Positions 20,379 to 47,165 are shown, counted from the first letter of the stretch. The stretch is 64,000 nucleotides of DNA from Candidatus Rariloculaceae bacterium (GCA_965262365.1 OZ253541.1:5015989-5079988), one strand, 5' to 3'. Notes: generated by a model not told the origin, from the letters alone. Numbers and translations: made by a program.

Positions 20379-20387
20379 CGACATTAG

Positions 20388-26738: not shown

Positions 26739-27116
26739 ATGCCCGCATCCAAAACTGTCCCTGCAAGCGCTGCCCCCGCGAACGCAAACCGCTTTCAATC
26801 GATCTCGCCCGCCTCGTTGTCGAGGACCGAGAAATCCTCCGTAATAAAGCTCGCGCTTGCCGTGCTGTCGGCGCGCTACTGCCCGGGCCGCGCGTTCAAC
26901 TCTCCCGAGGACATAGAAGCGTTTCTGCGCCTGAAACTCACAGGCCGCCGCAACGAGGTGTTCGGCATCGTTTATCTCGACACCCGCCACCGCCTGATCG
27001 AGATCGCCGAACTGTTCAACGGCACCGTCGACGGGGCGGCCGTGTACCCGCGCGTGGTCGTGCAGCAGGCGCTTGAGAAAAACGCCGCCGCGGTGATGTT
27101 TTTTCATAATCACCCC
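26739..27116 (+). pseudogene. radC: radC-1 (backbone JAB-domain gene), 5' part up to HNHP; 3' part at 47013-47165
   Basis: GAGGAG RBS; EVFGIVYLD, LFNGTVD, VYPRVV, HNHP, then foreign sequence. Confidence 0.92.
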
Positions 27117-27142
27117 TTAGGTGGAAAACAGGTTGTCAACCT
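27117..27142. repeat. Terminal imperfect inverted repeat of element A (partner 46986-47012)
   Basis: TTAGGTGGAAAACAGGTTGTCAACCT versus reverse complement TTAGGTTGCATTCACGGTTGTAAACCT. Confidence 0.8.
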
Positions 27143-27505
27143 ACCAATGATCAGCTCTGTTCTGCGCAAAATACTTGGGGATGATCGTATGCAATTACGC
27201 CAACACCTGACGGCTTAGAGTTCCTGCGGGCGTTTAGATTGGTTGATGCGCGTACCGTCGAGTTAACTTCCGCCAGTCTCCGAAATCCCAAACGTCATGC
27301 GTAGTCATCGAAACCATCGGTGCCTCACAGGTCATTTGTGCCATCCAGCCGCTCCACTGCCCTGCGGCCTGCGGAGCCGGAGGGCGGCGTTGGCCGGGCG
27401 AAATCCGGTGCTTCGCGAGGCTTCTCGCCACGCAGAAAACCCGGACGATTTTCATCATCCCATCGTTCGGCGTCCCTCCAGGGCGTTTCCAGGAGCACAC
27501 AGCCA

Positions 27506-27868
27506 ATGCCCGCATCGAAAACCGCCCCCGCAAGCGACAACCGCTTTCAATCGCTTTCCCCCGCCGCATTGTCCAAAAGCGAGAAGTCCTCCGTGGTGAC
27601 GCTCGCCCTCAAGGTGTTGTCCCAGCGCTTCCGCCCCGGCCGCGCGTTCACCTCGCCCGAGGACATCGAAGGGTATCTCCGCCTCAAACTCACCGGGCGG
27701 CGCAACGAGGTGTTCGGCATCATCTACCTCGACACCAGGCATCGCCTGATCACGATCGAGGAACTCTTCCAGGGCACCATCGACGGGGCGGCCGTGTACC
27801 CGCGCGTGGTCGTGCAGCAGGCGCTGGAAAAGAACGCCGCTGCTGTAGTGGTATACCACAATCATCCC
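27506..27868 (+). pseudogene. radC: radC-2 (cargo of element A), 5' part up to HNHP; 3' part at 34479-34631
   Basis: AGGAG RBS; same motifs as radC-1; interrupted at the same codons. Confidence 0.92.
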
Positions 27869-27894
27869 TTAGGTGGAAAACAAAGTGTCAACCT
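27869..27894. repeat. Terminal imperfect inverted repeat of element B (partner 34452-34478)
   Basis: TTAGGTGGAAAACAAAGTGTCAACCT; the partner end is identical to that of element A. Confidence 0.8.
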
Positions 27895-28257
27895 GCCAAC
27901 GATCGGCTCCGTTCTGCGCAAAATTTTTGGGGACGATCGTATGCAATTACGCCAACGCCTGACGGCTTGGAGTTCCCGCGGGCGTTTGAATTGGTTGATG
28001 TGCGTACCGTCGAGTTGACTTCCGCCAGGCTCCGCAATCCTGATCGTCATGCCTAGTCATCGAAACCATCGGTGCCTCACGGGTCATTTGCGCCATCCAG
28101 CCGCTCCACTGCCCTGCGGCCTGCGGAGCCGGAGGGCGGCGTTGGCCGGGCGAGGTCGGGTGCTTCGCGAGGCTTCCCGCCACGCAGAAAACCCGGACGA
28201 GTCTCATCATCCCATCTTTCGGCGTCCCTCCAGGGCGTGTCCAGGAGCCCACAGCCA

Positions 28258-28767
28258 ATGCCCGCATCGAAAACCGCCCCCGCAGGCGACAACCGCTTTG
28301 AATCGCTATCGCCCGCTGCATTGTCCAAGAGCGAGAAGTCCTCCGTTGTGACGCTCGCCCTCAAGGTGTTGTCCCAGCGCTTCCGCCCCGGCCGCGCGTT
28401 CACTTCGCCCGAGGACATCGAAGGTTATCTGCGCCTCAAACTCACCGGGCGGCGCAACGAGGTGTTCGGCATCATCTACCTCGACACCCGGCATCGCCTG
28501 ATCGAAATCGCCGAACTCTTCCAGGGCACCATCGACGGGGCGGCCGTGTACCCGCGCGTGGTCGTGCAGCAGGCGCTCGACAAGAACGCCGCGGCCGTTG
28601 TGATTTTTCATAATCACCCATCAAAAATTTCAGAACCGAGCGATGCCGACCGCAGCATCACGCTGAAGCTCGGCAAGGCGCTGGCGCTGATTGACGTGCG
28701 CCTGCTCGATCACCTCGTCGTCACCGACGGTGACGTGGTCTCGTTCGCGCAACGCGGGCTGATATGA
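28258..28767 (+). CDS. radC: radC-3, intact JAB/MPN-domain protein (169 aa), cargo of element B
   Basis: E...HNHPS...EPSDAD...LLDHLVV; AGGAG RBS; unoccupied site CACCCA at 28615-28620. Confidence 0.93.
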   Translation: MPASKTAPAGDNRFESLSPAALSKSEKSSVVTLALKVLSQRFRPGRAFTSPEDIEGYLRLKLTGRRNEVFGIIYLDTRHRLIEIAELFQGTIDGAAVYPRVVVQQALDKNAAAVVIFHNHPSKISEPSDADRSITLKLGKALALIDVRLLDHLVVTDGDVVSFAQRGLI

Positions 28768-28783
28768 CCGAGCGTTTCGGCAA

Positions 28784-29212
28784 CTAGTTGCCAGGGTTCG
28801 ACACCGGTTCCAGTCGCACGGATGCCAACTTCGTTTTGCTGCCACGACGAAGTGCGGCGAGTTCTCCCTCGCGTCTCTGAAGCAAGATCCGACTCTCGGA
28901 CCAAGCCCCAAAGTAGTGGTCGACGAGTGCTGCAAGTTGGCCGAGTTGAGTTCGCAATGCAGCGTTCTCTTCACGCAAGGCTGTCAAGGCCTGTTGGCTT
29001 GGTGCCGCTCTTCGCCAGTGTTTATGCTGCCATTTGTGCAGCGCGTGCACTACGCTCGGGTGGTAGCGGTAGAGCGTGGTACGCGAGACGCCGGCAATCC
29101 GACACAGCGCTGTTGCGGTTGGTTTGCCGGGCAGGGTACCGGAAGCGTGTTGAGCAATCAGTTGCGACAACGCCCGTTGAAGTCGTTGTTCCGTCGATAC
29201 GTTATCGGCCAT
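28784..29212 (-). CDS. TnpC/Srap-like accessory protein (HTH plus coiled coil) of element B
   Basis: TATALCRIAGVSRTTLYRYHP HTH; LREENAALRTQLGQL coil; last gene of the recombinase operon. Confidence 0.75.
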   Translation of the reverse strand: MADNVSTEQRLQRALSQLIAQHASGTLPGKPTATALCRIAGVSRTTLYRYHPSVVHALHKWQHKHWRRAAPSQQALTALREENAALRTQLGQLAALVDHYFGAWSESRILLQRREGELAALRRGSKTKLASVRLEPVSNPGN

Positions 29213-31103
29213 GGTTGCCTTCCTTGCAGGTGGCATTGTCGATCGCTCGAATCATCGCGCGAGCTTCCTCGAGTCGGCTGCGCGCGATTTGCAGTGTCTG
29301 CCGAGGCAGTGCCGGTTCGTGCAACAGGGCCTCGTGTCGATCGACCTGATCGAGCCAGTACGGTCCATGTTTTGGCGATACCGCGAAGTTCTTGCATCCC
29401 GCGCAGGTGGAGGGCTCCCGGCGTGCGGGGTTGGGACCGACGGCGTTGCCGAGGCACGCGCTATGCTCTTCGCGGTAGACGCAGAACCCCCAGTCGCACA
29501 CGCCGAGCGTGAGTCCCGCGTCGGTCAGCATGCGTGCATAGCTTTTTATGTCTTCCTTAAGGCGCGCGCCTCTGAAGCGCGGACGTTTGGCGGCGACCTC
29601 CTGGCCTGCGCGTCCGCCCAAGGAGGGTGTCGCGAGCATGTGTTCCCAGGCGCTCACCGACTGCTCCAGAATCTCGGCATCGATCTCCCGGTTGAGGCGA
29701 TAGTCGGATCCGCAATAGGACGTATCGGTGACGGCGCGTTCGCGATGGCCCAGATGTTGGGCGATGGCAAACAAGGCCGATCGGTCCCGTAGCGCCGCGA
29801 AGCGCACGAAGGTCTTGCGGCCCTGATGGGTTGTCAATCGCCACGGTTCGCCGTCATGATCGGGCAGCTCCAGCCACGTAGCGAATCGACCGAGCAACAA
29901 TCGCATGCGCTGAGTCGAAGCGATCTCGATCTCGCCCTCGCACATCGGCCGCCACTCGGTGGCGCCTTTGGCACCGCAGCGGCGCAGCCACAGATCGTCG
30001 CGACCCGTTTGCTGACGATGCCCTTCGGACAGTGCTTCGAGCACCGCGATGGCTTGAACCGCCGGTGGCGGGGCGACCCACTGATGAGGTCGGCCGTGGT
30101 ACTCGGGCTGTCTTTTGTAAATGGCGCCGACGAGGACGGTCATGGAATCGGGCTCCGCCCCGTGACGTTTTACGCAGCCGGCCTGCAGGTGCAGAATCTC
30201 ACTGGCTCTTGCGCCGACGAGGTAGGCGATGACGACAAAGCAGGCCGCGTAGAGCATCTCGATGGCCCAAGCCAGGTCACCAACCGTTGTCAGCGACCGG
30301 TCGTGGCCGGGACTCTCCACAGCGGCCCGCTCGAGCGCGCGCGTTGCCGCGTTGGTGCAGGCATCGGGGCCGCAGCCCCGCCGCTCGGCCGATCCCATGG
30401 CATCGGCGTAGACCTCTCGTGCTCGCAAGATGTTGCTGGCTCCAACGCTGACCAGGTCAATCGCGTGCTTGACGAGCGCCACGGCAACCGCGTCAGGCGT
30501 GTGCGGCCAGCCTTGGATATCGGCATCGCGCACGCCGGCGACATCGCCGTGGCTGCGCCCGGGGAAAGGGTCGAACGTGAGTCCGTCGTCGATCTCGTTG
30601 CGAAAGCGATAGAGATACGTGAACAGGTACAGGTACTTCTCCACCGTCCTGTTGGCGACGGTCTCAGTGGCGATGCCGGCACGCTCCGCGACCGCGCGTT
30701 GAAACTGCCGCACCGCGGTGGCGTCCAGACCGCCAAAGCGTGAGACCCCGGCGCGATCCATCCATCGGAGCAGCTGGCGCAGATGCGCGAAATAACCGCC
30801 GACTGTGCTCGCCCGCTGTGACAATCCCGTGCCCAGACCACGGCGACGGATGATAGCGATCAACTGTCGGCTGCTCTCCAGCAGTGACGCATACCGATCG
30901 TCGGTGAACACCCGGTCGTTGGGCATGGAGAAACCCCACAGCAATCGAACGGGCCGGGGCTCTTCGAGCACGTTGGTCGGTCGAAGCGTCCAAACGGCAT
31001 CGTTCCAGTCGCAGTCGAGCAGAAACCAACCTCGATCGGTGGAGCCTGCCTGCTCGTCCGATGACGTGCTGCGTTGTAACGCGTGTGACGGTGACGTGGG
31101 CAT
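29202..31103 (-). CDS. Large tyrosine recombinase (IntB/TnpB-like) of element B
   Basis: GARASE (R), YK, HQGR, HLGH...TDTSY; Cys-rich C-terminus. Confidence 0.88.
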   Translation of the reverse strand: MPTSPSHALQRSTSSDEQAGSTDRGWFLLDCDWNDAVWTLRPTNVLEEPRPVRLLWGFSMPNDRVFTDDRYASLLESSRQLIAIIRRRGLGTGLSQRASTVGGYFAHLRQLLRWMDRAGVSRFGGLDATAVRQFQRAVAERAGIATETVANRTVEKYLYLFTYLYRFRNEIDDGLTFDPFPGRSHGDVAGVRDADIQGWPHTPDAVAVALVKHAIDLVSVGASNILRAREVYADAMGSAERRGCGPDACTNAATRALERAAVESPGHDRSLTTVGDLAWAIEMLYAACFVVIAYLVGARASEILHLQAGCVKRHGAEPDSMTVLVGAIYKRQPEYHGRPHQWVAPPPAVQAIAVLEALSEGHRQQTGRDDLWLRRCGAKGATEWRPMCEGEIEIASTQRMRLLLGRFATWLELPDHDGEPWRLTTHQGRKTFVRFAALRDRSALFAIAQHLGHRERAVTDTSYCGSDYRLNREIDAEILEQSVSAWEHMLATPSLGGRAGQEVAAKRPRFRGARLKEDIKSYARMLTDAGLTLGVCDWGFCVYREEHSACLGNAVGPNPARREPSTCAGCKNFAVSPKHGPYWLDQVDRHEALLHEPALPRQTLQIARSRLEEARAMIRAIDNATCKEGNHGR

Positions 31104-31112
31104 GCGGGCCTC

Positions 31113-32849
31113 TTATCGAAGCTCCGGCAACGGCGCAAGCGCCCGCATCAGCGCTTGCGCCGAGGCATGTTGATCGCTGCCGAACCGTGGCAGGATGTCT
31201 TGTTCCAGGATCTGCAGTTGCGGTTCGTAGAAGGCCTTCCACCGTGCTGGATGCAACGTCGCTGCACTCGTGCGCAGGTGATCGCGGGCCTGCAGCAGTC
31301 TGGCCAGGGTCGTCGGGTCTTGTGCAATGATGGCGTTGGGGCAAGTGAAGCAGCCCATGAAGTTGGTGCAGAGCTCACCGCGACGCGACCCCGGTGCGAT
31401 GCCTTCAAACGGGTTGCTGCACTCGAATCCAAACATCGTCACGACGGCGCCGCCAGGTGGCTCTGCCGGCGGCGCTTGCGGCGACTCGACGACGGCGGTG
31501 TCGTCACACTGTTCGATGTGCTCGAGGAACGCGCCTTGCAGTGCGGCGATGCGGGCATGGTTCTGTGCCTTCACACGCGGTGTGTCGACGTAACCGATGG
31601 TTGTTGCAAGATGCGCGTGGTTGGCCAACGACTGTGTCTTGCGGAGATCGCCGCTGACGCGGTAGAAACTTGCCAGGACACTGGGGCGGATGGATGCGAG
31701 CGTAAAGTGCGCAAGCTCATGGCGTTCGCGAAATACCTTGAGGTGATGCCTGACGGCCGCCGTTGTCAGTGCGCTAACACCACGTCTGTGCTTATACAGA
31801 AACAACCGGTCGCGATCATCGGCCGGCGCCATTGGACGGAGCCGCCGGTTCCACTCGAGGATCTCCTTCACCAGTGAAGGTGGCTCGAAACGATCGGTCG
31901 CACTGAACGTGCGTCGCTGCATGCGGTTGGAGCGCGACTTGAACCACACGAGCGCTTCGCGATCGTGTAACAGCGGCAACGGCTGCAAGCAGTCGCACTC
32001 GATCTCTGCGATCGGTTCGGGGTTGCCGGCGGCATGGATCAGAATGGCCAGGTAGTACGGCAGCAGCGCCTCAAGGCGCGGATACAGGCACGGTTCCACG
32101 CCCTTCATGCCACCGAACCGAGTCAGTGCCTGTCGCGCCGCGTACTGTCCTGCGACCGCAAACTGACGATCCGGCGGTACGACGCCGCCGAAGCGTTGTT
32201 CGATGTAATTGAGCAGCCCACCGAGTGTGGCCACGGAGTCGGCGGCGCCGGCGCGTTCGGCGTCGGCGGCAGTGCGCCGCGCCCGAATCTCTTTTATGTC
32301 GCTCTTGCACGCCTTCAGCAGCGCGCGCAGAGCGCGCGCCGACATCGTCGCAACAGGTCGAGTGTCGCGATTGCGCCAGGGAAACGGGTTAAACGGGTAA
32401 TCGATGCCGCCGAGGATCTCCGGGCGACACCGTTCGAGCCACTGCAGCAGCATACGCAGCGTGGCGTACGTCCTCGATCGACTGGACTTGCTCCACGGTT
32501 GACCGTTGGATCGGCGTTGGCCGTTCAGCCACTCGACGTAGCGCACCAGCAGACCGCCGTTGAGGTCGGCCAGGCTGTGGATCGCCGCGGACTCGTCCGC
32601 GAACCGAGCGAACGTTTTTACGTTCCACCAGTGCAGGTAAAGACTCCGCTCGGCCAGCACCCCGAAATGCCGCCAAAAGGCCTCGGCCAAGGCCAGCCGC
32701 ACGTCGGCCGGCAGCCTGAGCGAACTGAAATCCATGACGGTGTCACGAATGCGCCGAGGTGCATCGAAACGCGATGACTGCAGCGTCCTCGACGATACGC
32801 TCGATGCGTTGGCGGGCAACAAACGCGGCATGGATTTACGGCGAGACAT
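31113..32849 (-). CDS. Tyrosine-recombinase-fold protein with degenerate active site (CDS2-like) of element B
   Basis: AAGNPEP in place of TGxR, ASIR in place of HxxR, ANH...TTIGY retained; C..FMGCFTCPNA tail. Confidence 0.8.
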   Translation of the reverse strand: MSRRKSMPRLLPANASSVSSRTLQSSRFDAPRRIRDTVMDFSSLRLPADVRLALAEAFWRHFGVLAERSLYLHWWNVKTFARFADESAAIHSLADLNGGLLVRYVEWLNGQRRSNGQPWSKSSRSRTYATLRMLLQWLERCRPEILGGIDYPFNPFPWRNRDTRPVATMSARALRALLKACKSDIKEIRARRTAADAERAGAADSVATLGGLLNYIEQRFGGVVPPDRQFAVAGQYAARQALTRFGGMKGVEPCLYPRLEALLPYYLAILIHAAGNPEPIAEIECDCLQPLPLLHDREALVWFKSRSNRMQRRTFSATDRFEPPSLVKEILEWNRRLRPMAPADDRDRLFLYKHRRGVSALTTAAVRHHLKVFRERHELAHFTLASIRPSVLASFYRVSGDLRKTQSLANHAHLATTIGYVDTPRVKAQNHARIAALQGAFLEHIEQCDDTAVVESPQAPPAEPPGGAVVTMFGFECSNPFEGIAPGSRRGELCTNFMGCFTCPNAIIAQDPTTLARLLQARDHLRTSAATLHPARWKAFYEPQLQILEQDILPRFGSDQHASAQALMRALAPLPELR

Positions 32850-32851
32850 CG

Positions 32852-34012
32852 CTACGTCGTCCCGGCAAAGAGGGAATCCAGGACGTCTTTGAGCGTCCAC
32901 TCATCGACCGCGATGGCACGCAAGTAGCGGTCCGTCGTACCGATACGTTCGTGGCCCATCAGCACCTTGACGATAAGCAGCGGGTTAATCGCCGCGCCGG
33001 CGCCGGCCAACCGCTCCAGTCGCGCCAGCAGCATGCAGGCAAACGTCGCGCGCAACTGATGTGTGGTCGCTCTGAATCCGCAGCGTGTGCCTGCGCGGCG
33101 GACCTGGCGCTGATAGGCGTTCTTGCCCGCCGCTGCGCCACGTGCGTTGACGAACAATGCGCTCGGATCCGAGGTCGATCCTCTGCGTCTGGCGCGGCGC
33201 ACCCACGCGCGACGATGTTGTGAGACGTAGCAAGCTGTCTCATCGAGCAAGCTGGCCGAGGCCACCACATAACCTCGCTTGCGGCCCTTGCGCAGCACCT
33301 CGACCACGTCGTGCGACGCCGTTGACGACGGCCGTTTGGCAACGTCGCCAATGTCGAGTCGCAGTAACTCGCTGACGCGCAGGCCCGTGTAGAGCTGCCA
33401 GCGAGCCATCAGGTCATAAGGCGGCGCGAGCGCCGCCATCAGCTCGCATGCTTGCGCCGATATGAGTGGACGCGGCAGTGACTCGAACTGTCGCAACACG
33501 AACAGACTGTGGTCGGTGGCTGTTGTGGTCGTGCTGCGCGCGGGCCGCGGCCGCTTAACCCGCGCAAAATCGCGAGGCTGGCTCGCCAACGGCGATGCAT
33601 CCAGGTACCGGTTGCGCACCAGCCACTCGTAGAATCTGAGCACGCCACGGACACGATGGTTGATGGTCGAGATACGGTACGGTCGACCGGTGTGCCCGCT
33701 CGGTTCCGACAGCATCCGGTTGCGGTACGCCACCAGGTCGACGGCATCCGCTTCCCGCCAGGCGATCGCGTTCTGTTCAAGCGTCTCGAACCAGTCGTAG
33801 AGAATCTCCGCGTAGGTCCTGAGAGTGTCAGCGGTATGGGCTCGCTGAATGAAGTGCTCATGTAGATACGCAACCGCCGGCTCAATGAGCTGACAATCGG
33901 CCGTGAACAGAAGCGGGAATCCGGCAGGTCTGGGCTCACGAAGCACCATCGAACGTGCCTGCAAGGCAGCCTCGGCAAGATGCTCGCCGACCTCGTCCGG
34001 CTCTGGCAGCAC
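32852..34012 (-). CDS. Tyrosine recombinase (IntA/TnpA-like) of element B; true start possibly ATG 33949
   Basis: TLRTYA core-binding helix, TGLRVSE, RKGRK, HQLR, LMGH...TTDRY. Confidence 0.92.
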   Translation of the reverse strand: MLPEPDEVGEHLAEAALQARSMVLREPRPAGFPLLFTADCQLIEPAVAYLHEHFIQRAHTADTLRTYAEILYDWFETLEQNAIAWREADAVDLVAYRNRMLSEPSGHTGRPYRISTINHRVRGVLRFYEWLVRNRYLDASPLASQPRDFARVKRPRPARSTTTTATDHSLFVLRQFESLPRPLISAQACELMAALAPPYDLMARWQLYTGLRVSELLRLDIGDVAKRPSSTASHDVVEVLRKGRKRGYVVASASLLDETACYVSQHRRAWVRRARRRGSTSDPSALFVNARGAAAGKNAYQRQVRRAGTRCGFRATTHQLRATFACMLLARLERLAGAGAAINPLLIVKVLMGHERIGTTDRYLRAIAVDEWTLKDVLDSLFAGTT

Positions 34013-34016
34013 CGAC

Positions 34017-34349
34017 TTACGAATGATCTGAACGATGTTGGCTTCGCTCGCGGGTCAGCTGCTTGACCGCGTCCACAAAAGACAGACCGCGAACATGCAT
34101 CGCCAGGTCGATGGCACCGCCACCGCCGCAGCGCCCTCGCATGTCGTACCACTGGCACCCTGTCGTCAAGATCTCAAACTCCCCGCGTGTGGTACGTACG
34201 TGCCAGCGTCGGCTGCGATCCGACTTGACCGGCACATAGCTTGGGTCGGCCTTGACGTGTATCGCCAGCAATGCCAAGGCATCGGAGGCCGGCATCTCGC
34301 GCAGCTGCGTCAACGTCGCTTCGTCGAAAAATCGGCGCCTCGCCATCAA
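34017..34349 (-). CDS. 110-aa protein resembling a primase N-terminal (CHC2-like) domain, first gene of the operon
   Basis: WYD....GGGGAIDLAMHV.GLSFVDAVKQL; GGAGG RBS; conserved in element A. Confidence 0.7.
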   Translation of the reverse strand: MMARRRFFDEATLTQLREMPASDALALLAIHVKADPSYVPVKSDRSRRWHVRTTRGEFEILTTGCQWYDMRGRCGGGGAIDLAMHVRGLSFVDAVKQLTRERSQHRSDHS

Positions 34350-34420
34350 CGCATGCCTCCAAAATGATCGCGTGCCGGGCTACTCGCCTCTAAACGAGGC
34401 CTGGGCTGCTCGGCCCGCTC

Positions 34421-34449
34421 AGTGTAGGCAATCAGAAGGAGGGACCCAA
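34421..34449 (-). promoter_or_regulatory. Candidate sigma70 promoter of the recombinase operon
   Basis: TTGGGT-N17-TACACT on the minus strand, just inside the terminal IR; identical in element A. Confidence 0.35.
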
Positions 34450-34478
34450 TGAGGTTTACAACCGTGAATGCAACCTAA

Positions 34479-34631
34479 CATCCAAGTCAGGTATCGGAGC
34501 CAAGTGACGCCGACCGCGGCATCACGCAGAAGCTCGGCCGGGCCCTCGCGCTGATCGACGTGCGCCTGCTCGATCACCTCGTCGTCACCGACGGGGACAT
34601 GGTCTCGTTCGCGCAACGCGGGCTTATATGA
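34479..34631 (+). pseudogene. radC: radC-2, 3' part
   Basis: [50 protein letters not shown]. Confidence 0.92.
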
Positions 34632-34647
34632 CCGAGCGTTCCGGCAA

Positions 34648-35082
34648 CTAGTTGCCAGGGTTCGACAACGGTTCCAGTCGCACGGATGCCAAGTTCGTTT
34701 TGCTGCCACGACGAAGTGCGGCGAGTTCTCCCTCGCGTCTCTCAAGCAAAATCCGACTCTCGGACCAAGCCGCAAAGTAGTGATCGACGAGTGCGGCGAG
34801 CTGGGTGACCTGAGTTCGCAGTGTCGCCCGTTCTTCGCGCAACGCCATCAAGGTCTTCTGGTCCGGACCTGCTCTGCCGGGGTGTTTGCGTTGCCATTGA
34901 TGGAGCGATTGCAGTACGCCGGGGTGGTAGCGGTAGAGTGTGGTGCGCGAGACGCCGGCAAGCCGACACAGTGCTGTTGCAGTGACTGTGCTGGGCGTCC
35001 TCTCGGCAGCGTGTTGATCGATGAGTTGGGACAGCGCGCGTTGCAGTCGCTGTTCCGTCGATAGGTTGTCAGTGTCAGTCAT
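34648..35082 (-). CDS. TnpC/Srap-like accessory protein of element A
   Basis: Paralog of 28784-29212. Confidence 0.75.
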   Translation of the reverse strand: MTDTDNLSTEQRLQRALSQLIDQHAAERTPSTVTATALCRLAGVSRTTLYRYHPGVLQSLHQWQRKHPGRAGPDQKTLMALREERATLRTQVTQLAALVDHYFAAWSESRILLERREGELAALRRGSKTNLASVRLEPLSNPGN

Positions 35083-36973: not shown

Positions 36974-36982
36974 ACGGCTCGC

Positions 36983-38719: not shown

Positions 38720-39188
38720 CGCTAGGTCGTCTCGGTCAAGAGGGTATCCAGGACGTCTGTGATCGTGCACTCGTCAACCGCGATGGCGCGCAGGTAGCGG
38801 TCGGTCGTGGCGATGTGTTCGTGGCCCATCAGCACCTTGACGATCAACAGCGGGTTGATCGCTGCGCCGCCGCTGGCCAACCGCTCCAGTCGCGCCAGCA
38901 GCATGCACGCGAAGGTCGCGCGCAGCAGATGCGTTGTCGCCTTGAATCCGCACCGGGCGCCTGCACGGCTGATCTGGCGTTGATAGGCGTTCTTGCCGGC
39001 CGCTGCGCCTCGCGCGTTGACGAACAACGCGCACGGCTCCGTGAGCGGGCGCAGTTTGTCTGAGGGGATTTGGGGGGGAATCGCTCGGATTAAATGATGT
39101 TCGGAGCGGGTTGCCCCCCGAAGAACTTGCAAAAAGTTCCCCGGGAGGCTTGTCTCGGTGACGCTGATTTCAACTGAGACGGTGGCCA

Positions 39189-39803
39189 GTGTCGCACAAT
39201 CTTTTCTCCGCTCCCAACTTTTCCAATGCCCGGGTCTGGGCACTTCTTGAACGCATCGACAAAGACGAGGCCGCGACGTGCCGCGAGGAGGGGTGTCCGC
39301 GCTGCGGGCAAATACTGCACAGCGCGACCTACCCCCGCAAGCCTCACGGCCTGACGGCAGAGCTGAGAGTCGGGGCGCGCCGCTTCAGCTTCTGCTGCGC
39401 GATGTGCCGGGGTCGAGTGACGCCGCCCTCGGTGCGGTTCTTCGGCCGGCGTTGGCGGGCCGCACCGCTGTTCGCGCTGCTCGGCGCGCTGGTCTCGGCG
39501 CCGCGGGCGCGGCTCGGGGCGATCGCGCGCCGGTGGGCGATCCCGTTATCGACGCTGAAGCGCTGGCGGCGGTGGTGGCTCAAGACGATTGTGACCACAC
39601 CGCCGTGGCGCACCCGGGGCGGGGCGCTGGCGGTGCCCTCGGACGAGGCGCCGTTGCGCTGGCTGCTCAAACTCATTCGGGGCCGGGGGTTCCGTGGCCG
39701 GCTGTTGTACAGCCTGATCTGGCTCAAGCCCTGGACCGAGCCGTGCGCGCTCGGTGACGGGCCGATCCTGTCCGCAGAAGGTGTTTCTGACATGCTCGTG
39801 TAG
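39189..39803 (+). CDS. Zn-ribbon/HTH accessory protein
   Basis: CPRC...YPRKP...FSFCCAMCR.RVTPPSVRF; STLKRWRRWW. Confidence 0.7.
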   Translation: MSHNLFSAPNFSNARVWALLERIDKDEAATCREEGCPRCGQILHSATYPRKPHGLTAELRVGARRFSFCCAMCRGRVTPPSVRFFGRRWRAAPLFALLGALVSAPRARLGAIARRWAIPLSTLKRWRRWWLKTIVTTPPWRTRGGALAVPSDEAPLRWLLKLIRGRGFRGRLLYSLIWLKPWTEPCALGDGPILSAEGVSDMLV

Positions 39804-39850
39804 GGCGTGCACCATGCTCTCCATCGGGTCATCGGACGAGGAGAGAACGC

Positions 39851-41326
39851 ATGGGCAGAGGCGACGGAAGCAACACTCAGGAACGGTGGGCGCGGCTGCG
39901 CTTCGCGGTGGTCGGTCCGCTGCTGGCCTCGCCGCCACCCGCGAGGCAGCTGCGGGCGGAGCTTGACCGGCTCTCGCAACGGGAGTGGGAACACCCCACG
40001 CGCGGTGGGCCGGTTCGGTTCTCGGTCTCCACCATCGAGCGCTGGTACTACCAGGCGCGCTCGGCGGGGAACGACCCGGTCGGGGCGCTGAAGCGCCGCC
40101 CGCGCGCCGATGCCGGACGCGAACGGGCGATCTCGGCGGTGCTGATGGAGGCGCTGCGCGAGCAATACCGGACGCACCCGTCGTGGTCGGCGCAGCTGCA
40201 TTACGAGAACCTGGCCGCGCGGGTCGAGGCCGATCCGGCGCTCGGGCCGATGCCGTCCTACGCCACGCTGACCCGGGCGATGCGCAATCGCGGGCTGGTG
40301 CGCAAGCGCCGCCGCCGGCGCCCCGGGGGAGAGGACAAGACACCGGTATCCACGCGTGAGGTGCTCAGCTACGAAGTCTCGCGCAGCCACGCCCTTTGGC
40401 ACTGCGACTTTCACCACGGAAAGCGCCGCGTGCTGATCCCCTCGGGGGAGTGGAAGACGCCGATCCTGCTCGGCTTCATCGACGATCATTCGCGTCTGGG
40501 CTGCCACCTGCAGTGGTACCTGGCCGAGACCGCGGAGGTGTTCGTGCACGGGCTGTGCCAGGCGTTCATGAAGCGGGGCCTGCCGAGAGCGCTGATGAGC
40601 GACAACGGGTCCCCGATGCTCGCCGGCGAAGTCCAGGAGGGGCTGCACCGTCTCGGGATTATCCATTCCCGCACGCTCGCGCGCGCGCCGCACATGAACG
40701 GCAAGTGCGAGGTGTGGTGGGCGCTCGTGGAGGGCCGGCTGATGGCCATGCTGGAGGCGGTGGAGCCGCTCACGCTCAAAAGACTCAACGACGCCACCAT
40801 CTCATGGCTTGAGCAGGATTATCACCGCCGTGTTCACCGCGAGCTGGGCATCACCCCGCATCAACGCCTGATCGAGAGCCCCGACGCCTCCAGGCCCTGT
40901 CCGGGCACGGGCGAGTTGCGCGACGCGTTCCGGATCGTGCGCACGCGCACCGTGCGCCGCTCCGACGCCACCGTCTCGGTGGGCGGCGTGCGCTACCAGC
41001 TCCCGGCGCCGTGGCGGCACCTGCGCGAGGTGCGGGTCCGCTACGCGCGCTGGGATCTCGCCGGTATCGATCTGGTCGACGAGCGAAGCGGCGACCGCAT
41101 GTGCACGCTGTACCCGCTGGACAAGCGCGCCAACGCGTCGGGGGTGCGCCGTCCCGTGCGATCCGCCGACGATGACGACGATAAAGACGGCGGCGACGAC
41201 GCGAACGAACCCGCGCCGCTGCTGGGGCGCATCCTCGAGGAGCAGGCCGCCACGGGTCTGGCGCCGGCCTGGCTGCCTCACCCCGACAGCCCCGCCGAAG
41301 ACGACGATCTGGGAGAGACCCAATGA
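39851..41326 (+). CDS. DDE (rve/Mu-type) transposase
   Basis: WHCDFHH, FIDDHSR, MSDNGS, NGKCE. Confidence 0.92.
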   Translation: MGRGDGSNTQERWARLRFAVVGPLLASPPPARQLRAELDRLSQREWEHPTRGGPVRFSVSTIERWYYQARSAGNDPVGALKRRPRADAGRERAISAVLMEALREQYRTHPSWSAQLHYENLAARVEADPALGPMPSYATLTRAMRNRGLVRKRRRRRPGGEDKTPVSTREVLSYEVSRSHALWHCDFHHGKRRVLIPSGEWKTPILLGFIDDHSRLGCHLQWYLAETAEVFVHGLCQAFMKRGLPRALMSDNGSPMLAGEVQEGLHRLGIIHSRTLARAPHMNGKCEVWWALVEGRLMAMLEAVEPLTLKRLNDATISWLEQDYHRRVHRELGITPHQRLIESPDASRPCPGTGELRDAFRIVRTRTVRRSDATVSVGGVRYQLPAPWRHLREVRVRYARWDLAGIDLVDERSGDRMCTLYPLDKRANASGVRRPVRSADDDDDKDGGDDANEPAPLLGRILEEQAATGLAPAWLPHPDSPAEDDDLGETQ

Positions 41327-42144
41327 ACCGCGAACTGCTGAACCTCTACGGGCTGAAGTTCAACCCCTTCGCCACCGACGTGCCGGTCGAAAGCCTGCTG
41401 ACCACGCCCGCCGTGGACAGCTTCTGCCGAAGGGTCGAACAGCACCTGGTGCGCCAGGGCGGGTTCGCGCTCATCGCCGGCGACCCCGGCACCGGCAAGA
41501 GCGTGGCGCTGCGCCTGCTCGCCGAGCGCCTCGGGCGCACCGACGGGCTCAACGTCGCGGTGCTGACCCATCCCTCCTCCAGCCTCGGGGACTTCTACCG
41601 CGAGATGGCGGACCTGTTCGGCATCACCCTGATCCACAATAACCTCTGGCTTGGGTTCAAGGGGCTGCGCCACCGCTGGCTGCTGCACTTCGAGGACACG
41701 CGCACCCGTCCGATCCTGCTGGTGGACGAGGCCCAGGAGGTACTCGGCGGCGTACTGACCGAGATGCGCCTGCTCACCTCCACGGACTTCGACTCGCGCG
41801 CCATTCTCAGCGTGGTGCTGGCCGGGGACAAGCGCCTGCTGGCCAAACTGCGCAGCGTGGAGTTGCTGCCCATCGCCTCGCGGATCCGCCAGCGCCTGAT
41901 GCTCACGCGCGCGGAACCGGCGGACCTGGAGAAGCTACTGGATCATCTGCTGCGCGAGGCCGGCAACCCCACGCTGATGACCGCGGGGCTGAAGGACACG
42001 CTCATCGCGCACGCCGGGGGCAACCCCCGGACGCTTGTGATCCTGGCCGACGGGCTGCTGGCGGCGGCCGCGGACCAGAACCGCGAGGTGCTGGACGAGA
42101 AGCTCTTCATCGAGACCGGCGGCACCGGCAAGGCGCGCCGGTGA
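41323..42144 (+). CDS. ExeA/TniB-type AAA+ ATPase
   Basis: GDPGTGKS, LLVDEAQ, GNPR. Confidence 0.9.
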   Translation: MNRELLNLYGLKFNPFATDVPVESLLTTPAVDSFCRRVEQHLVRQGGFALIAGDPGTGKSVALRLLAERLGRTDGLNVAVLTHPSSSLGDFYREMADLFGITLIHNNLWLGFKGLRHRWLLHFEDTRTRPILLVDEAQEVLGGVLTEMRLLTSTDFDSRAILSVVLAGDKRLLAKLRSVELLPIASRIRQRLMLTRAEPADLEKLLDHLLREAGNPTLMTAGLKDTLIAHAGGNPRTLVILADGLLAAAADQNREVLDEKLFIETGGTGKARR

Positions 42145-43250
42145 AGGGCTTCCCGACGCTGAGCCCGGCGGGCCTTGAGGTGCGCCCGCCCGCGCAACAG
42201 TGGCTGGTCGAGGCGCTGTGGAGCGAGCAGGGCGTGGGCATCGTCGGCGGCGAGCCCAAGTGCGGCAAGTCCTTTCTGGCGCTGGATCTGGCCGTGGCGG
42301 TGGCCGCGGGCGTGCCCTGCCTGCGCCGCTACCGCCCCGGCGGGCGCGGCGCGGTGCTGCTGTTCGCCGCCGAGGACGCCGGCCACATCGTGCGCGCACG
42401 GCTGGAAGGCATCGCCGGCGCCGCCGGAACCGCCTTCGAAGAACTCGACATCGCCGTCATCGACGCACCCACGCTGCGGCTGGATCATCGCGCCGACCGC
42501 CAACGGCTGCTTCACACCGTCGAACGGGTCAAGCCCCGCCTGCTGGTGCTCGACCCCCTGGTGCGTCTGCACGGCGTGGACGAGAACGCCGCCGGGGAGA
42601 TCGGCCCGATCCTGGGGTTCCTGCGCGAGATCCAGCGCCGCTTCGACACCGCGGTGGTGCTCGTGCACCACGCCCGCAAGGGCGGTGCGGCCCGCCCGGG
42701 CCAGGCGCTGCGCGGCAGCTCCGAGCTGCACGCCTGGGGCGACTCCAACCTCTACCTGCGCCGCCGCCGCGAGCGGATCCTGCTCACCGCCGAGCACCGC
42801 GCCGCGCCCGGGCTCGCCGATATCGCGATCGAACTCACCGACCACGGCCAGGGGCTCGCCCTGCGTCTCGGCCAGGCCGCGGACGAGGAGTCCGTCCCGG
42901 CGCGGCAAACGCCCGAACAGCGCGTACTTGAGATCCTCGCCGAAGCCGGGACGCCGCTCTCCCAGCGTCAGATCCGCGAGCGCGCCGCCACGCGCGCAAC
43001 CACCGTCGTGGCCGCGCTGCGCACGCTGTCCCGCGAGGGCCGGGTCGAACACGCCGCCCAAGGCGGATACCGCCTCGCCGGCGACGCTCACCGCAAAGCG
43101 TTTCCCAAACGCGTTTCCCGCCCAAACCCTAGGCCAGCGTGGGAAACGGAAACGGGAAACACGCCCCGCCCCGCCCGTGGCGGAACCGCCGCTCAAGCGT
43201 CCGGCGCCGGGACACCGCCCGGGTCCACCACCACGGAGCAACTGGCTTGA
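42141..43250 (+). CDS. RepA/AAA_25-type (RecA-fold) helicase-like ATPase with C-terminal wHTH
   Basis: WLVEALW, GGEPKCGKS, AAED, LLVLDP, DEN, VHHARK, LRGSS. Confidence 0.85.
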   Translation: MKGFPTLSPAGLEVRPPAQQWLVEALWSEQGVGIVGGEPKCGKSFLALDLAVAVAAGVPCLRRYRPGGRGAVLLFAAEDAGHIVRARLEGIAGAAGTAFEELDIAVIDAPTLRLDHRADRQRLLHTVERVKPRLLVLDPLVRLHGVDENAAGEIGPILGFLREIQRRFDTAVVLVHHARKGGAARPGQALRGSSELHAWGDSNLYLRRRRERILLTAEHRAAPGLADIAIELTDHGQGLALRLGQAADEESVPARQTPEQRVLEILAEAGTPLSQRQIRERAATRATTVVAALRTLSREGRVEHAAQGGYRLAGDAHRKAFPKRVSRPNPRPAWETETGNTPRPARGGTAAQASGAGTPPGSTTTEQLA

Positions 43251-43717
43251 ACCGAACCCGTCGAGCCGATCCCGCAGCCTCGCGCCGGGGTAACCCCAAT
43301 CGCGTCGAGCGACGCCATCCGCACTCCATCCGCTTTACCAAGGCCGAGTGGACAAGGATCCAGCAGGCCGCCGCCCGGCATGGCCTGACGTCCGGCGAAA
43401 TCGTCCGGGCGCGTGCGCTGGGGCTGCCCGACAAGCCGTTCCACGCCGATATGCCCGCTTCATTCTCCCCGGGGCACGTCGCGCTGATCGAGGCCACCTA
43501 TCGCGCCGTGCATCTGCTGGCCACGATGGCCACCCAACCCATGCCATACGAGGAAGTCGACGCCCTGCTCGGCGCCGCTCACACTGCCCTGATCGCGACC
43601 CTGGACGAAGAGCCCGCCGGGGCGGTTGCCGGGGAATCGCTGTCGACCGGGCGACGGCCACGCCGTGCGAAGCACAATGCATCGTCGAACTCGTCGTCGG
43701 GCCTGATCCCCATTTAG
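43247..43717 (+). CDS. MobC-like ribbon-helix-helix protein
   Basis: SIRFTKAEWTRIQQAAARHGLTSGEIVRARAL; TTGA overlap; GGAG RBS. Confidence 0.6.
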   Translation: MNRTRRADPAASRRGNPNRVERRHPHSIRFTKAEWTRIQQAAARHGLTSGEIVRARALGLPDKPFHADMPASFSPGHVALIEATYRAVHLLATMATQPMPYEEVDALLGAAHTALIATLDEEPAGAVAGESLSTGRRPRRAKHNASSNSSSGLIPI

Positions 43718-44684
43718 GCGCTGACGGCAACGACCGCGCCGCCTCTACGTTCCATCCCTTCAAGCCTGCGGCCCGCTGGCCGTAAGCTTGCTTACGGGCA
43801 TGCCCGCACCGCGTCGGGTGAGCGGCGGCGGGTCACCCGAAGGGCCGCAGCGCAGCGCAGGAGCCGCGCAGCGGCTTGACCCGGCGACGTTCATCCGACA
43901 TCCGCCCGGTCCCCCGGGGACGCGATCCGAAATCCGTCAAACAACGTGAGCATCGCGCCATCAGGTAGCGTTAGCGCGCTCACTCCGGGTTCGATCTTCT
44001 GTGTCTGGCACGTTGCAGCCACGCGCGGCGATGTTGCGAGACGTACGAAGCGGTCTCGTCGAGCAAGCTGACGGAGGCCATCACATGACCTCGCTTGCGG
44101 CCCTTGCGCAGGACCTCGATGACGCCGTGCGACGCTGTTGCCGGCAACCGCCCGGCAACGTCGCCAACGTCCAGTCGCAGCAACTCGCTGACGCGCAAGC
44201 CCGTGTAGAGTTGCCAGCGAGCCATCAGGTCATAGGGCGGCCGAAGCGCCGCCATCAGCTCACAGGCTTGCGCCGACGTGAGCGGTCGCGGCAGTGGTTC
44301 GAACTGCCGCAACACGAACAGACTGTCGTCGGTGGCTGCTGAGATCCTGGTGCGCGCCGACCGCGGCCGCTTACGCTGTGCAAAATCGCGAGGCTGCGTG
44401 GCCAAAGGCGACGCAGCCAGGTACCGGTTGCACACCAGCCACTCGTAGAATCGGAGTACGCCGCGGACGCGATGGTTGACGGTCGAGATACGGTACGGTC
44501 GGCCGGTGTGCCCGCTCGGTTCCGACAGCATCCGGTTGCGGTACGCCACCAGATCGACGGCATCCGCTTCCCGCCAGGCGATCGCGTTCTGTTCAAGCGT
44601 CTCGAACCAGTCGTAGAGAATCTCCGCGTAGGTCCTGAGAGTGTCAGCGGTATGGGCCCGCTGAATGAAGTGCTCATGTAGATA

Positions 44685-46397
44685 GTTCTTGTCCGTAAAC
44701 GGCGGGGTTCGAAGCGGGGGTTGAGTTGGAAGCGACCTTGCACTTTGTCACAAATCCGGTTGGTTGGCAAAAAAGCGGATTCGCCACGGGCTCGCGCCCG
44801 TCGAGCGTCACCGGGGCCGTGCGTTTGGCCGCGCAAAGCGTCGATTTTCAGGCATCGGGCACGGGCGCTCGCCGGTCTTTGAACCGGTACACGGCGATGG
44901 CTGGCGGAAGGCGTCAGGCCGGCCGCGGGGGCGGTCGCACGAGGCGCATCAGGTTGTGGGCGAACACGGCCGAGTGCACGTAGGCCTGGAATCGCGGCCA
45001 GCCGCGCCAGCGGCACAGGCCGAGACCGAAGCAGCGTTTCAGGTAGGAGATACCCGCTTCGATACCGGCGCGGAAGCGCTTGAGTTGCCGGTACACCCAC
45101 GGCGAGGGGGACATGTCGGTCTCTTTCATGCCGCGTTTCTTGTGGAACATCGCATGCGTCACGCCAAGCGCCTTGGCCTGCTTGAGGTTCTCGCGCGACG
45201 CGTAGCCGCCGTCGAAGGCCGCGTGCGTCGGCGCCGTGCCGTAGTGTTCGATATGCCGCTCAAGCATCGGCAGGCAGCGCGCGCTGTCGGCCGGATTGCC
45301 CTTCTCCACCACCGTGTCGAGCACCAGTCCGCTGCGCCCGGTGGCGAAGTTGACCTTGTGACCGAAGTGCGTGCCGCGACCGCCCTTGAGGATAATGTCG
45401 GTGTGCGGCTCGAACAGGCTCAGTACCTTTTCCGCCGCCGGTACCGTCTCGCCGTCGAACACGCGGCGTTGCGTCTGATCCACGACACGGAGCAGCAACT
45501 CTCTGGTTTCGCTGACGTTTTGTGTCCATGACACGGCCCACGGCGGCGCCGCGGACGCCACCGCCGGCAACGCCCCCTCGGCGTAGCCCAGCGTGCGCTG
45601 CGCCAACCGCAACAGCTTGCGGTAGGTCTTCGAGCGCCGCGCGCCGCGTCGCGACCCGATCTCCAACGTGCGCCGCTTGGCCGCCCGACGGTGATCGTGA
45701 AACACCACGACTTGCGGCCCCAAGCGCTTGCGCGCCGTGCCGAGCAACCGGCTCAGCACGCGTATCCCGTCGTACAGCAGGCGGCTGTCGGCGGGTTCCA
45801 GGATATGCGTATGGGTCACCGTGCTGTCGATACGTAGCCGGTTTCCGGTTTCGATCCCCGCCGCGCTCGCCACGCCAAGCAAGTGCCGATTGATGCGCTC
45901 CCAAGTCGTCGCGCTCACCGCCCCCAGCGCCGCCTGCAGCGCTGACTTCTTCGGCAGCCGCGCCGTGTCCACGCGCGCGAAACGCTGTGCCGAACGCGAG
46001 TCCCGCAACGCAAACTCCAGCCCCCGGCAGGTCTCCTGGCGCAGATGCTTGAGTACCGCGCAACGCAGAATCGTCTCGCAGGTCAGCCCGTGGCGACCGC
46101 GCGCCGCCCCCGTATCGGCGCCCAGATCGGCGGCGATCTCGTCGAGCAACTCCGGGTGCTCGTCCAACCAGACCGACGCCCGTTCCAAGCCGTCCGCGAG
46201 CGGATGGTCAATGGCGGGCGGATCGAATAAACTTGTTTGTGCGGTGCGTTTCTCGCGCATGGCGCCTCCGGCGTTCTCGGTTTTTCGCGTTTTGCCTCGA
46301 ATCCAAGACAAGAATAGCCGAAACGCCGGTTTTCAACTACCTCAAAACGCCTGTTTGTCCAGCTAAATCAATCCATTAGGAATTTACGGACAAGAAC
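44685..46397 (-). mobile_element. Complete ISNCY (ISDol1/ISRm17-like) insertion sequence, 1,713 bp
   Basis: 15-bp IR GTTCTTGTCCGTAAA; 6-bp TSD TAGATA (44679-84 and 46398-403). Confidence 0.9.
44914..46260 (-). CDS. ISNCY-family DDE transposase
   Basis: RIDSTV, SLFEPHTDII.KG, FGHK, DGGY, RFRAGIEAGISYLKR; GGAGG RBS. Confidence 0.9.
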   Translation of the reverse strand: MREKRTAQTSLFDPPAIDHPLADGLERASVWLDEHPELLDEIAADLGADTGAARGRHGLTCETILRCAVLKHLRQETCRGLEFALRDSRSAQRFARVDTARLPKKSALQAALGAVSATTWERINRHLLGVASAAGIETGNRLRIDSTVTHTHILEPADSRLLYDGIRVLSRLLGTARKRLGPQVVVFHDHRRAAKRRTLEIGSRRGARRSKTYRKLLRLAQRTLGYAEGALPAVASAAPPWAVSWTQNVSETRELLLRVVDQTQRRVFDGETVPAAEKVLSLFEPHTDIILKGGRGTHFGHKVNFATGRSGLVLDTVVEKGNPADSARCLPMLERHIEHYGTAPTHAAFDGGYASRENLKQAKALGVTHAMFHKKRGMKETDMSPSPWVYRQLKRFRAGIEAGISYLKRCFGLGLCRWRGWPRFQAYVHSAVFAHNLMRLVRPPPRPA

Positions 46398-46551
46398 TAG
46401 ATAGGCAACCGCCGGCTCAATGAGCTGACAATCGGCCGTGAACAGAAGCGGGAATCCGGCAGGTCTGGGCTCACGAAGCACCATCGAACGTGCCTGCAAG
46501 GCAGCCGGAGCGACAAGGTTAGCTACCTCGTCCGGCTCAGGCAGTTCCGAT

Positions 46552-46884
46552 TTACGAATGATCTGAACGATGTTGGCTTCGTTCGCCGGTCAACTGCTTG
46601 ACGGCGTCCACAAAAGACAGCCCGTGAATGTGCATCGCCAGGTCGATCGCGCCGCCACCACCGCGGCGCTGTCGCGTGTCGTACCACTGGCACCCTGTCG
46701 TCAAAATCTCAAACTCCCCACATGTGGTAAGTACGTGCCAGCGTCGGCTGCGATCCGACTTGACCGGCACATAGCTTGGGTCGGCCTTGACGTGTATCGC
46801 CAGCAATGCCAAGGCATCGGAGGCCGGCATCTCGCGCAGCTGCGTCAACGTCGCTTCGTCGAAAAATCGGCGCCTCGCCATCAA
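46552..46884 (-). CDS. 110-aa primase-N-terminal-like protein of element A
   Basis: Paralog of 34017-34349. Confidence 0.7.
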   Translation of the reverse strand: MMARRRFFDEATLTQLREMPASDALALLAIHVKADPSYVPVKSDRSRRWHVLTTCGEFEILTTGCQWYDTRQRRGGGGAIDLAMHIHGLSFVDAVKQLTGERSQHRSDHS

Positions 46885-47012
46885 CGCATGCCTCCAAAAT
46901 GATCGCGTGCCGGGCTACTCGCCTCTAAACGAGGCCTGGGCTGCTCGGCCCGCCAGTGTAGGCAATCAGAAGGAGGGACCCAATGAGGTTTACAACCGTG
47001 AATGCAACCTAA

Positions 47013-47165
47013 CATCCCAGCGGGATTGCGGAACCCAGTGAAGCCGACCGCGGTATCACCCTCAAGCTGGGTAGGGCACTGGCATTGATCGACGTGCGCC
47101 TGCTCGATCACCTGGTCGTCACCGACGGGGATGTGGTGTCCTTCGCCGCCAGGGGTCTCATCTAG
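47013..47165 (+). pseudogene. radC: radC-1, 3' part
   Basis: [50 protein letters not shown]. Confidence 0.92.

Follow-up and report, generated by a model that had tools for sequence, protein, structure and literature searches.

Nested GInt-like elements that split radC and carry a radC of their own

Integrative elements are known to avoid damage to the gene they target, or to repair that gene with a short 3' replacement. Here we describe elements that would, if our reading of them is right, lower the cost of insertion in a third way, by carrying a full spare copy of the gene they split. They come from a 64,000-nt stretch, hereafter the window (5,015,989-5,079,988 of the single-contig 6.03-Mb genome of a Candidatus Rariloculaceae bacterium, GCA_965262365.1; G+C 65%), in which one radC gene, radC1, is interrupted by element A, whose own radC, radC2, is interrupted by element B, which holds the intact radC3. 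A and B are diverged members of one family (83% DNA identity), with an operon of five genes for a small protein, IntA, IntB, YR3 and ORF5. A preliminary description of the window had counted four; the gene to be added is that of ORF5, at 28784-29236 on the minus strand.

By gene order, gene sizes and sequence matches, the closest known kind of element appears to be the GInt, rather than the Tn554, SE and RIT elements to which A and B had initially been likened. GInts are defined by ginABCD, encoding three integrase-like proteins and a small protein, with cargo after ginD and a 6-nt overlap, and GInt families are mutually 24-40% identical (PMC5385486, 2017, cited here and below from parts of its text). 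Excision as a circle, with all operon genes required, is also characteristic of GInts. A tblastn search of plasmids with YR3 leads to a Pseudomonas aeruginosa plasmid operon (376/563/637/171 aa, followed by resistance genes) with which IntA, IntB, YR3 and ORF5 (386/595/633/150 aa) are collinear one to one, an extra 110-aa gene preceding them in the window. IntA matches the first gene at 27% identity (E 4e-28), IntB the second at 28% (E 2e-25), YR3 the third at 26% over 634 aa (E 1e-38) and ORF5 the fourth at 33% (E 4e-8). These matches suggest that the window elements are GInt-like, the P. aeruginosa operon itself being judged a GInt by its architecture and not as a named sequence. Shared with GInts are three tyrosine-recombinase-like proteins and a small helix-turn-helix (HTH)/coiled-coil protein in the same order and of similar sizes, site-specific insertion, imperfect flanking repeats and a 6-nt overlap able to carry sequence from the previous site. 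The layout of B is also of GInt type, with the operon at one end, cargo directly after its last gene and a short far end: the radC3 stop lies 16 bp from that of ORF5, and a 390-bp leader then separates radC3 from the left end. The differences lie in the extra 110-aa first gene; in YR3, which on our reading of its motifs may keep a first Arg that GinC is said to lack; in position, the described GInts lying at gene ends with the product unaltered, whereas A and B lie mid-gene; and in the choice of genes borne on integrative and conjugative elements (ICEs) as targets, with a copy of the target as cargo. Two P. aeruginosa GInts sit at the end of a 'duplicated' nrdA gene (PMC5385486), which may be another travelling target copy.

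SE elements resemble A and B in having imperfect inverted-repeat ends, a 6-bp spacer copied from one flank and a core of four genes, of which two encode catalytic recombinases, one a protein with a recombinase fold and one a small coiled-coil protein (PMC10214605). Their gene order is intA-tfp-intB-srap, however, with the fold protein second rather than third, no target copy is described for them, and SE and GInt proteins show no BLAST similarity (PMC10214605). The word radC is absent from the main texts of both the GInt paper (PMC5385486) and the SE paper (PMC10214605). Tn554-type transposons do target radC (att554) in Firmicutes, according to excerpts of the literature, and Tn554 leaves a 6-bp footprint (summarised in PMC10214605). 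Their tnpA/B/C comprise two recombinases and one small protein, with no third recombinase-fold protein, as against five genes in the window; no on-board radC copy is reported and the hosts belong to another phylum, a separation made by description. RIT elements (ritABC) are a tyrosine-recombinase trio that also splits an ICE-borne radC, inactivating that of Tn4371-like ICEs in Betaproteobacteria (PMC2864759 and PMC3414803, in part). They differ in length (~3.5 kb, with three recombinases of 315-410 aa, against ~5.6 kb for the window operon alone; PMC10214605, PMC3414803) and are without small proteins, and the parts of these papers used here describe no on-board radC copy.

A target homolog on board has been reported for Tn552-II, a Tn554-type tnpABC element that carries a 'target-gene-like' gene, tgl, for which its authors suggest target rescue (PMC12486829, 2025, again from parts of its text). 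It, too, is a transposon of the tyrosine-recombinase type that brings in a coupling sequence and carries a target homolog, and its intermediate is circular, as that of A and B would be; it differs in host (Staphylococcus), in having two recombinases plus TnpC, a 7-bp att and a YolD-like target, and in being a single case. The parts of PMC12486829 consulted report no nesting, selection analysis or family-wide pattern. In the literature searched, supplementary tables excluded, Tn552-II is the only precedent we found for an element that carries a target homolog with rescue suggested; the arrangement in the window had been thought undescribed, and for its central idea this is one printed precedent.

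The features of the window that bear on the argument are listed below, HMM denoting a radC hidden Markov model built in this analysis from 18 sequences, and ORF an open reading frame.

26739-27116, plus strand: radC1 5' part, of the radC of the host ICE-like backbone; ends CAC CCC; Pfam RadC 1-76 of 121, ATG taken from the translation
27117-47012, plus strand: element A, 19,896 bp, from TTAGGT to ACCTAA, identified by homology to B; holds B and two later insertions
27117-27505, plus strand: leader of radC2
27506-27868, plus strand: radC2 5' part, A's own radC; ends CAT CCC; Pfam RadC 1-76 of 121 on ORF 27320-28018
27869-34478, plus strand: element B, 6,610 bp, from its end motifs
28258-28767, plus strand: radC3, intact, 169 aa; Pfam 1-121 of 121, E 4.4e-40, 136.8 bits; NCBIfam RadC family, E 1.3e-43
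28784-29236, minus strand: ORF5, 150 aa, HTH then coiled coil, in the position of GinD/TnpC/Srap
29202-31103, minus strand: YR3, 633 aa, predicted tyrosine-recombinase fold with a Cys-rich C-terminus, in the GinC position
31113-32900, minus strand: IntB, 595 aa, large tyrosine recombinase; Pfam Phage_integrase, E 1.2e-4; GinB position
32852-34012, minus strand: IntA, 386 aa, Xer-like tyrosine recombinase; Pfam Phage_integrase, E 8.8e-13, NCBIfam XerC/XerD; GinA position
34017-34349, minus strand: small first operon gene, 110 aa, 57-98% conserved across loci
34479-34631, plus strand: hexamer CATCCA, radC2 3' part and stop; HMM 125-174
34648-38770, minus strand: A's ORF5 (34648-35082), YR3 (35075-36973) and IntB (36983-38770), all open
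38752-46544, minus strand: A's IntA in three pieces (38752-39042, 43983-44684 and 46398-46544), found by tblastn with B's IntA
39043-43982, plus strand: inserted transposon of ~4.9 kb with rve transposase, AAA_22 and AAA_25 (Pfam); boundaries approximate; single-copy in the genome
44685-46397, minus strand: inserted insertion sequence (IS) with a DDE_Tnp_1 transposase; 14 near-full-length matches in the genome, at least 12 at 100% identity
46552-46884, minus strand: A's small gene, 110 aa, open
47013-47165, plus strand: hexamer CATCCC, radC1 3' part and stop; HMM 125-174
beyond 47165: ICE-like backbone genes, ParB-like, HATPase, Sno-type helicase and Toprim (Pfam)

The nested order first claimed for the window is present in the sequence: radC1 5' part, the left end of A, radC2 5' part, then B with radC3 and its operon, the radC2 3' part, the operon of A and finally the radC1 3' part. 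Pfam RadC (121 positions) is matched at positions 1-76 by ORFs 26505-27218 and 27320-28018 and at positions 1-121 by ORF 28072-28767; the 3' pieces, HMM 125-174, lie at 34479-34628 and 47013-47162. Translation of the three radC genes probably begins at the ATGs at 26739, 27506 and 28258, upstream of which the longer ORFs take in leader sequence. Self-BLAST pairs 26724-27867 with 27491-28619 (87%; tandem radC 5' units spaced at 767 and 752 bp, the three of them aligning at 80-87%), 28630-33171 with 34494-39041 (83%), 33168-33868 with 43984-44684 (89%) and 33863-34612 with 46398-47146 (92%). Left ends, TTAGGT, begin at 27117 (A) and 27869 (B), and right ends, ACCTAA, stop at 34478 (B) and 47012 (A), giving exactly the 6,610 bp proposed for B. 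Directly before both left ends stands CAY-CCN, the His-Pro of the HNHP motif, and CAY-CCN with the rest of radC follows both right ends; the two elements thus share their insertion site, as had been claimed, and all A/B junctions share one codon register. Removal of the 6,610 bp of B had been expected to restore radC2. B does split radC2, but excision of exactly 6,610 bp leaves an in-frame HPHP, and the exact HNHPS is recovered by removing B plus one hexamer, 6,616 bp.

Tandem units of ~750 bp, of which there are three here, are a repeat type prone to misassembly, and the public sequencing runs consist of short contigs, none of those listed spanning the array. That the array is an error of assembly, or no more than a tandem duplication of the 5' region of radC, nevertheless strikes us as barely credible: the three units diverge by 8-20% from one another, each ends at the same codon and continues into a transposon end, each 5' stub is paired, in nested order, with a 3' stub that matches it, the genome was assembled as one 6.03-Mb contig, and the same nesting is seen in two other assemblies, L004 (another metagenome-assembled genome, MAG) and L087 (a metagenome contig), where two left ends lie 752 bp apart. 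The nested architecture is not a product of chance, since the 5' units differ by 8-20%, the junctions share one codon register and other assemblies show the same architecture.

The ends of the elements are imperfect inverted repeats of ~25 bp (TTAKGT...GTGTCAAC) common to the family, the left end starting with TTATGT, not TTAGGT, in most related clades. The hexamers to the left and right are CACCCC/CATCCC for A, CATCCC/CATCCA for B and CACCCC/CACCCC for a second copy of B, which lies in another radC of the same genome (4,357,865-4,364,474) and is 100% identical over 6,610 bp. In many related loci, too, the left and right hexamers are unequal, differing at the third or sixth base. GInt, SE and Tn554 elements carry a 6-bp coupling sequence from their previous site, which leads to unequal flanks (PMC5385486 and PMC10214605, in part). 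The flanking hexamers of A and B are best read in the same way, as coupling sequences and not target duplications, because a target duplication would make both flanks equal. B appears to have been active recently, because there are two identical copies. A, by contrast with its four other operon genes, which are open, has an IntA disrupted by two insertions, and is crippled by them.

Two further joints turned up among assembled contigs of public runs. In runs X1 and X15, contigs join 28873 to 34321, skipping 5,447 bp, with a shorter side of 28 letters; the product would be a 1.16-kb mini-element with radC and without the operon, a form that the genome assembly does not contain. A contig joint from 35100 to 29236 is accounted for by the paralogy of A and B.

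Within the operon, ORF5 follows YR3 at almost every related locus (tblastn) and matches Pfam HTH_7, a resolvase-type HTH (E 1.6e-5), plus a weak coiled-coil match. The small 110-aa gene has no significant family in Pfam or NCBIfam; its ratio of nonsynonymous to synonymous substitution rates (dN/dS) between A and B is 0.27. IntA has, besides its integrase matches, a faint NCBIfam match (E 0.004) to 'gamma-mobile-trio recombinase GmtY', a named trio family. YR3 has no Pfam or NCBIfam match, and a PDB sequence search with a YR3 profile was empty at E ≤ 1. An AlphaFold model of YR3 (AF2, 20-sequence alignment; predicted local distance difference test score 67.8) has Cre, XerH and Tn1549 Int as its top Foldseek matches (probability 0.95-1.00), and YR3 is thereby predicted to be the third protein of the operon with a tyrosine-recombinase fold. 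R299, K330, R429, H453 and Y463 are invariant in the alignment; going by motifs, and with a model that is poor over residues 428-479, these may reflect the full catalytic set Arg-Lys-His-Arg-His-Tyr.

The JAB metal site is marked by the motif HxH...S..D. In radC3 this motif is present, read in translation as HNHPSKISEPSDAD; the frame is complete, with a full JAB domain including HNHPS...PS..D, and AGGAG stands 10 nt before the ATG. An intact radC as the sole cargo, as first proposed, is borne out for the window element. Among the internal radCs of B and of three related loci (L004, L006 and L007), dN/dS is 0.03-0.29 in all six pairs (NG86), and radC2 against radC3, that is A against B, gives 0.129 over the 5' part. 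The operon genes give 0.27-0.31, so that the carried radC lies at or below them; it is under purifying selection across the window's clade.

How far the arrangement extends was surveyed with YR3, to which 465 of 8,000 scored candidates, mostly from Beta- and Gammaproteobacteria, are related at E ≤ 0.001. A scan of one genome per species yielded 78 loci, on which the five operon proteins, radC pieces (HMM) and end motifs were mapped, and a metagenome scan with the left-end motif added six further contigs. A quick YR3 tree omits 11 of the 78 loci, namely L057 (stop codon) and L067, L069-L072, L075 and L078-L081 (match under 540 aa); L009 and L015 show the radC 3' side only, and the remaining loci, mostly short contigs, are unclassified. 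The groups are as follows.

Group (a), the window's clade, L004-L007: target radC at HNHP; intact internal radC in 4/4; YR3 77-92% identical, support 100 in the quick YR3 tree
Group (b), sister lineages, L008, L010, L012-L014, L016, L018, L063, L076 and L080: target radC at the same codons; internal radC in 0/10
Group (c), a deeper clade, L057-L060 and L069: target radC after GAT-CAC-CTN (LDHL, HMM position 158); the same slot holds a radC-like gene in 4/5
Group (d), a 35-row clade of the quick YR3 tree, within L022-L075: target an SbcC/SMC-like ATPase gene (SMC_N, AAA_23), after ..DNL-HP; target paralog in the slot, 31 full and 4 partial

Group (a) gains from the metagenomes: all six contigs have a radC stub followed by the left end, and the three that reach far enough all have the internal radC, ORF5 and YR3. 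The suggestion that the carried copy serves siblings as a landing pad is upheld by nesting seen independently three times, in the window, in L004 and in L087. In group (b) the split radC frame stops two codons into the element; operons and ends are intact, and some near-identical copies lie in different genera. In group (c), the frame of L059 breaks after the site. Group (d) repeats the pattern with an unrelated gene. There the internal paralog lies directly after ORF5 and convergent with it, and the 5' stub, internal copy and 3' stub occur together in 18 loci. For example, L035 has its internal copy at 12649-15129 on the minus strand and target stubs at 4561-6582 and 18596-18766. Among themselves the internal copies share 67-100% identity, as against 42-66% with the targets. 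At the site the targets encode LHPY, and each of the 34 internal copies that align there has L(T/V)P(F/Y) instead; the CAYCCC hexamer is thus gone, and none of these copies is interrupted. Some group (d) elements also carry merA, the target copy and mer genes together occupying the cargo slot; in the L035 type, identical YR3 is spread across Piscinibacter, Rubrivivax and other genera, and mercury-resistance genes have moved at 100% identity. As a guess, the SbcC-like clade could be linked to the Cupriavidus 'BIM' modules (recombinase + 'SMC domain protein').

The window sits in a wider ICE context. The backbone beyond radC (ParB-like, HATPase, Sno-type helicase, Toprim) is found in four regions of the genome at 83-87% identity, each of them with a type IV secretion system coupling-protein (T4CP) homolog 49-65 kb away; the four would be ICE-like elements. 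Two of the four hold scars, at 3994377-3995650 and 2976391-2977679, which consist of a radC 5' stub, then an A-type left end, leader and intact chimeric radC, and are without operon and without radC 3' stub. Their left parts agree with that of A in 45-50 of 50 bases per alignment window; at the HP site identity drops to ~72%, after which each scar continues into its own ICE backbone. The scars are what would be left if an inner left end paired with an outer right end and the composite departed.

We think it likely that A and B are GInt-like, site-specific transposons that live on ICEs and compensate for the gene they split. The five-gene operon would drive their movement: on excision the two ends of an element would be joined into a circle across a 6-bp coupling sequence, and integration would take place beside a CAYCCN hexamer, so that the target supplies one of the flanking hexamers and the site left behind the other. 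What the A/B lineage targets, in radC genes borne on ICE-like elements, is the hexamer for the second His and the Pro of the JAB motif HNHP. The complete radC in the cargo slot, convergent with the last operon gene, would replace the function of the split one, so that insertion would cost little to the carrier ICE, the element's means of transfer. Because the His and the Pro specified by the hexamer are catalytic residues of the JAB site, which a functional copy must keep, the carried radC could not lose the target, and siblings would nest in it, A having entered radC1 first and B then A's radC2. Nested arrays would in turn allow alternative end pairings, and an inner left end paired with an outer right end would remove the composite and leave a scar.

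A match between cargo and target is found in three clades, always in the same slot, and chance does not explain it. Besides compensation, two other explanations were weighed. In the first, a target gene is captured by proximity: mis-excision or the use of an alternative end sweeps the adjacent gene into the cargo slot, with no selection for compensation. GInt cargo occupies exactly this slot and is said to derive from related bacteria (PMC5385486); the scars attest alternative end pairings; and in a radC tree (89 columns, 39 rows, weakly resolved and not used to count radC captures), the internal radCs of the window's clade group with target radCs of the same host lineage (17-row clade, support 97). 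Yet the DNA at the flanks offers half a gene, and we found no simple way from there to a complete one; the internal copies are paralogs both old and distinct, as the identities of the SbcC-like copies illustrate; they evolve under purifying selection; and the SbcC-like copies are without the target hexamer. We consider capture of this kind unlikely. Selection for compensation is favoured because the internal paralogs are old and under purifying selection and the SbcC-like copies have lost the target hexamer.

In the second explanation the carried gene serves the element itself, the RadC-type JAB protein or SbcC-like ATPase processing an intermediate or guiding targeting. This would fit both the match of cargo to target in three clades and the unvarying position of the carried gene directly after the last operon gene. 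It is very hard to square, however, with the ten radC-targeting loci that have no carried gene and keep intact operons and ends, some near-identical across genera, with the occupation of one slot by two unrelated protein families, or with published GInts, for which ginABCD alone are needed (PMC5385486); we give it little credence.

Compensation for the split gene, the reading we prefer, might then reach beyond A and B. A broader version, to which we assign even chances, is that of a 'bring your own target' lineage, in which each clade splits a conserved ICE gene, either radC at one of two sites or an SbcC-like ATPase gene, and carries a selected, functional paralog in a fixed slot, leaving the phenotype of the carrier unaltered by insertion; as part of the same evenly weighted proposal, a hexamer that can mutate would yield an immune spare copy, and one that encodes catalytic residues would yield nesting, composites and scars. 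The preliminary description had this family complementing the gene it destroys with a whole copy. The idea seems to extend beyond radC, to a second radC-site clade and the 35-locus SbcC-like clade, and it draws support from the intact, selected radC and from the four of four loci in the window's clade with an internal radC inside a split one; 'this family' is too broad, with none of ten in the sister lineages, and any such function would belong to particular clades and not to the whole family.

Several observations weigh against compensation, or against parts of the scheme above. The ten sister-lineage loci split radC at the same codons without a spare copy, so compensation is not required for persistence. 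In L078, a locus of the MAG that also holds L007, a 79%-identical YR3 end and ORF5 give way to 2.6 kb in which there is no radC. A sigma-70 promoter scan of 27000-29300 returned no sites, with terminator-like sites at chance level. How a whole target gene entered the cargo slot is a further difficulty: a pseudo-end lying farther away, targets in tandem and insertion immediately 3' of the gene were each considered, and each misfits the 16-bp gap between the radC3 and ORF5 stops. Kinship to GInts runs via a plasmid operon that matches the GInt definition, and not via named GinA-D proteins. As for mobility, a direct donor-recipient relation between the two B copies was rejected, the hexamers misfitting in both directions. 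A Logan contig of run X15 joins 27862 to 34479, which is radC2 without B plus 6 bp, at a depth of 75.5 against 76.2 for the single-copy part of A, and hints at excision of B; its shorter side is 25 letters, under the 30-letter caution, and it is present in one of the four runs.

Should the compensation reading hold, it would explain how non-conjugative tyrosine-recombinase transposons can pile up in conserved ICE genes and ride with them between hosts, and why ICE annotations contain tandem 'half genes' and duplicated radC or SMC-like genes. An ICE-borne radC would be worth replacing, which would make the question of why ICEs keep radC testable. A practical rule for annotating element boundaries would also follow, namely a split gene outside and an intact paralog inside.

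Some minor observations concern the relatives. L004 and L005 (both from a Ca. Rariloculus MAG) are paralogous, 98% identical over 10.8 kb, and differ by one 752-bp unit of left end, leader and radC 5' part; the outer element of L004/L005 comprises the small gene and IntA residues 1-226 only, and in L005 a single left end is accompanied by two right ends, as expected of a composite element. In L060 the target stub (8270-8377) covers HMM 124-159 only, the radC also being cut at the HP site, and the few bases past this HP cut are neither radC nor a known end. L050 has an intact radC (2874-3356, minus strand) 284 bp upstream of the small gene and divergent from it, the arrangement that the circle form of the window element would have; no right-end motif was found in L050. 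In L084 (9405-9926) and L086 (1286-1807) the carrier has radC genes in tandem, an extra intact one standing ~160 bp upstream of the split target. Public runs with small word shares are mostly labelled sponge metagenome, and run X3 gave two partial contigs; we draw no conclusion on habitat from them. Finally, the genome is crowded with IS elements. In the window, 1-3465 is a 3.5-kb repeat with an rve/Mu-type transposase (934-2265) and 20377-22418 a 2-kb IS with a DDE_Tnp_1 transposase (20515-22302), each with many genome copies at 98-100%.

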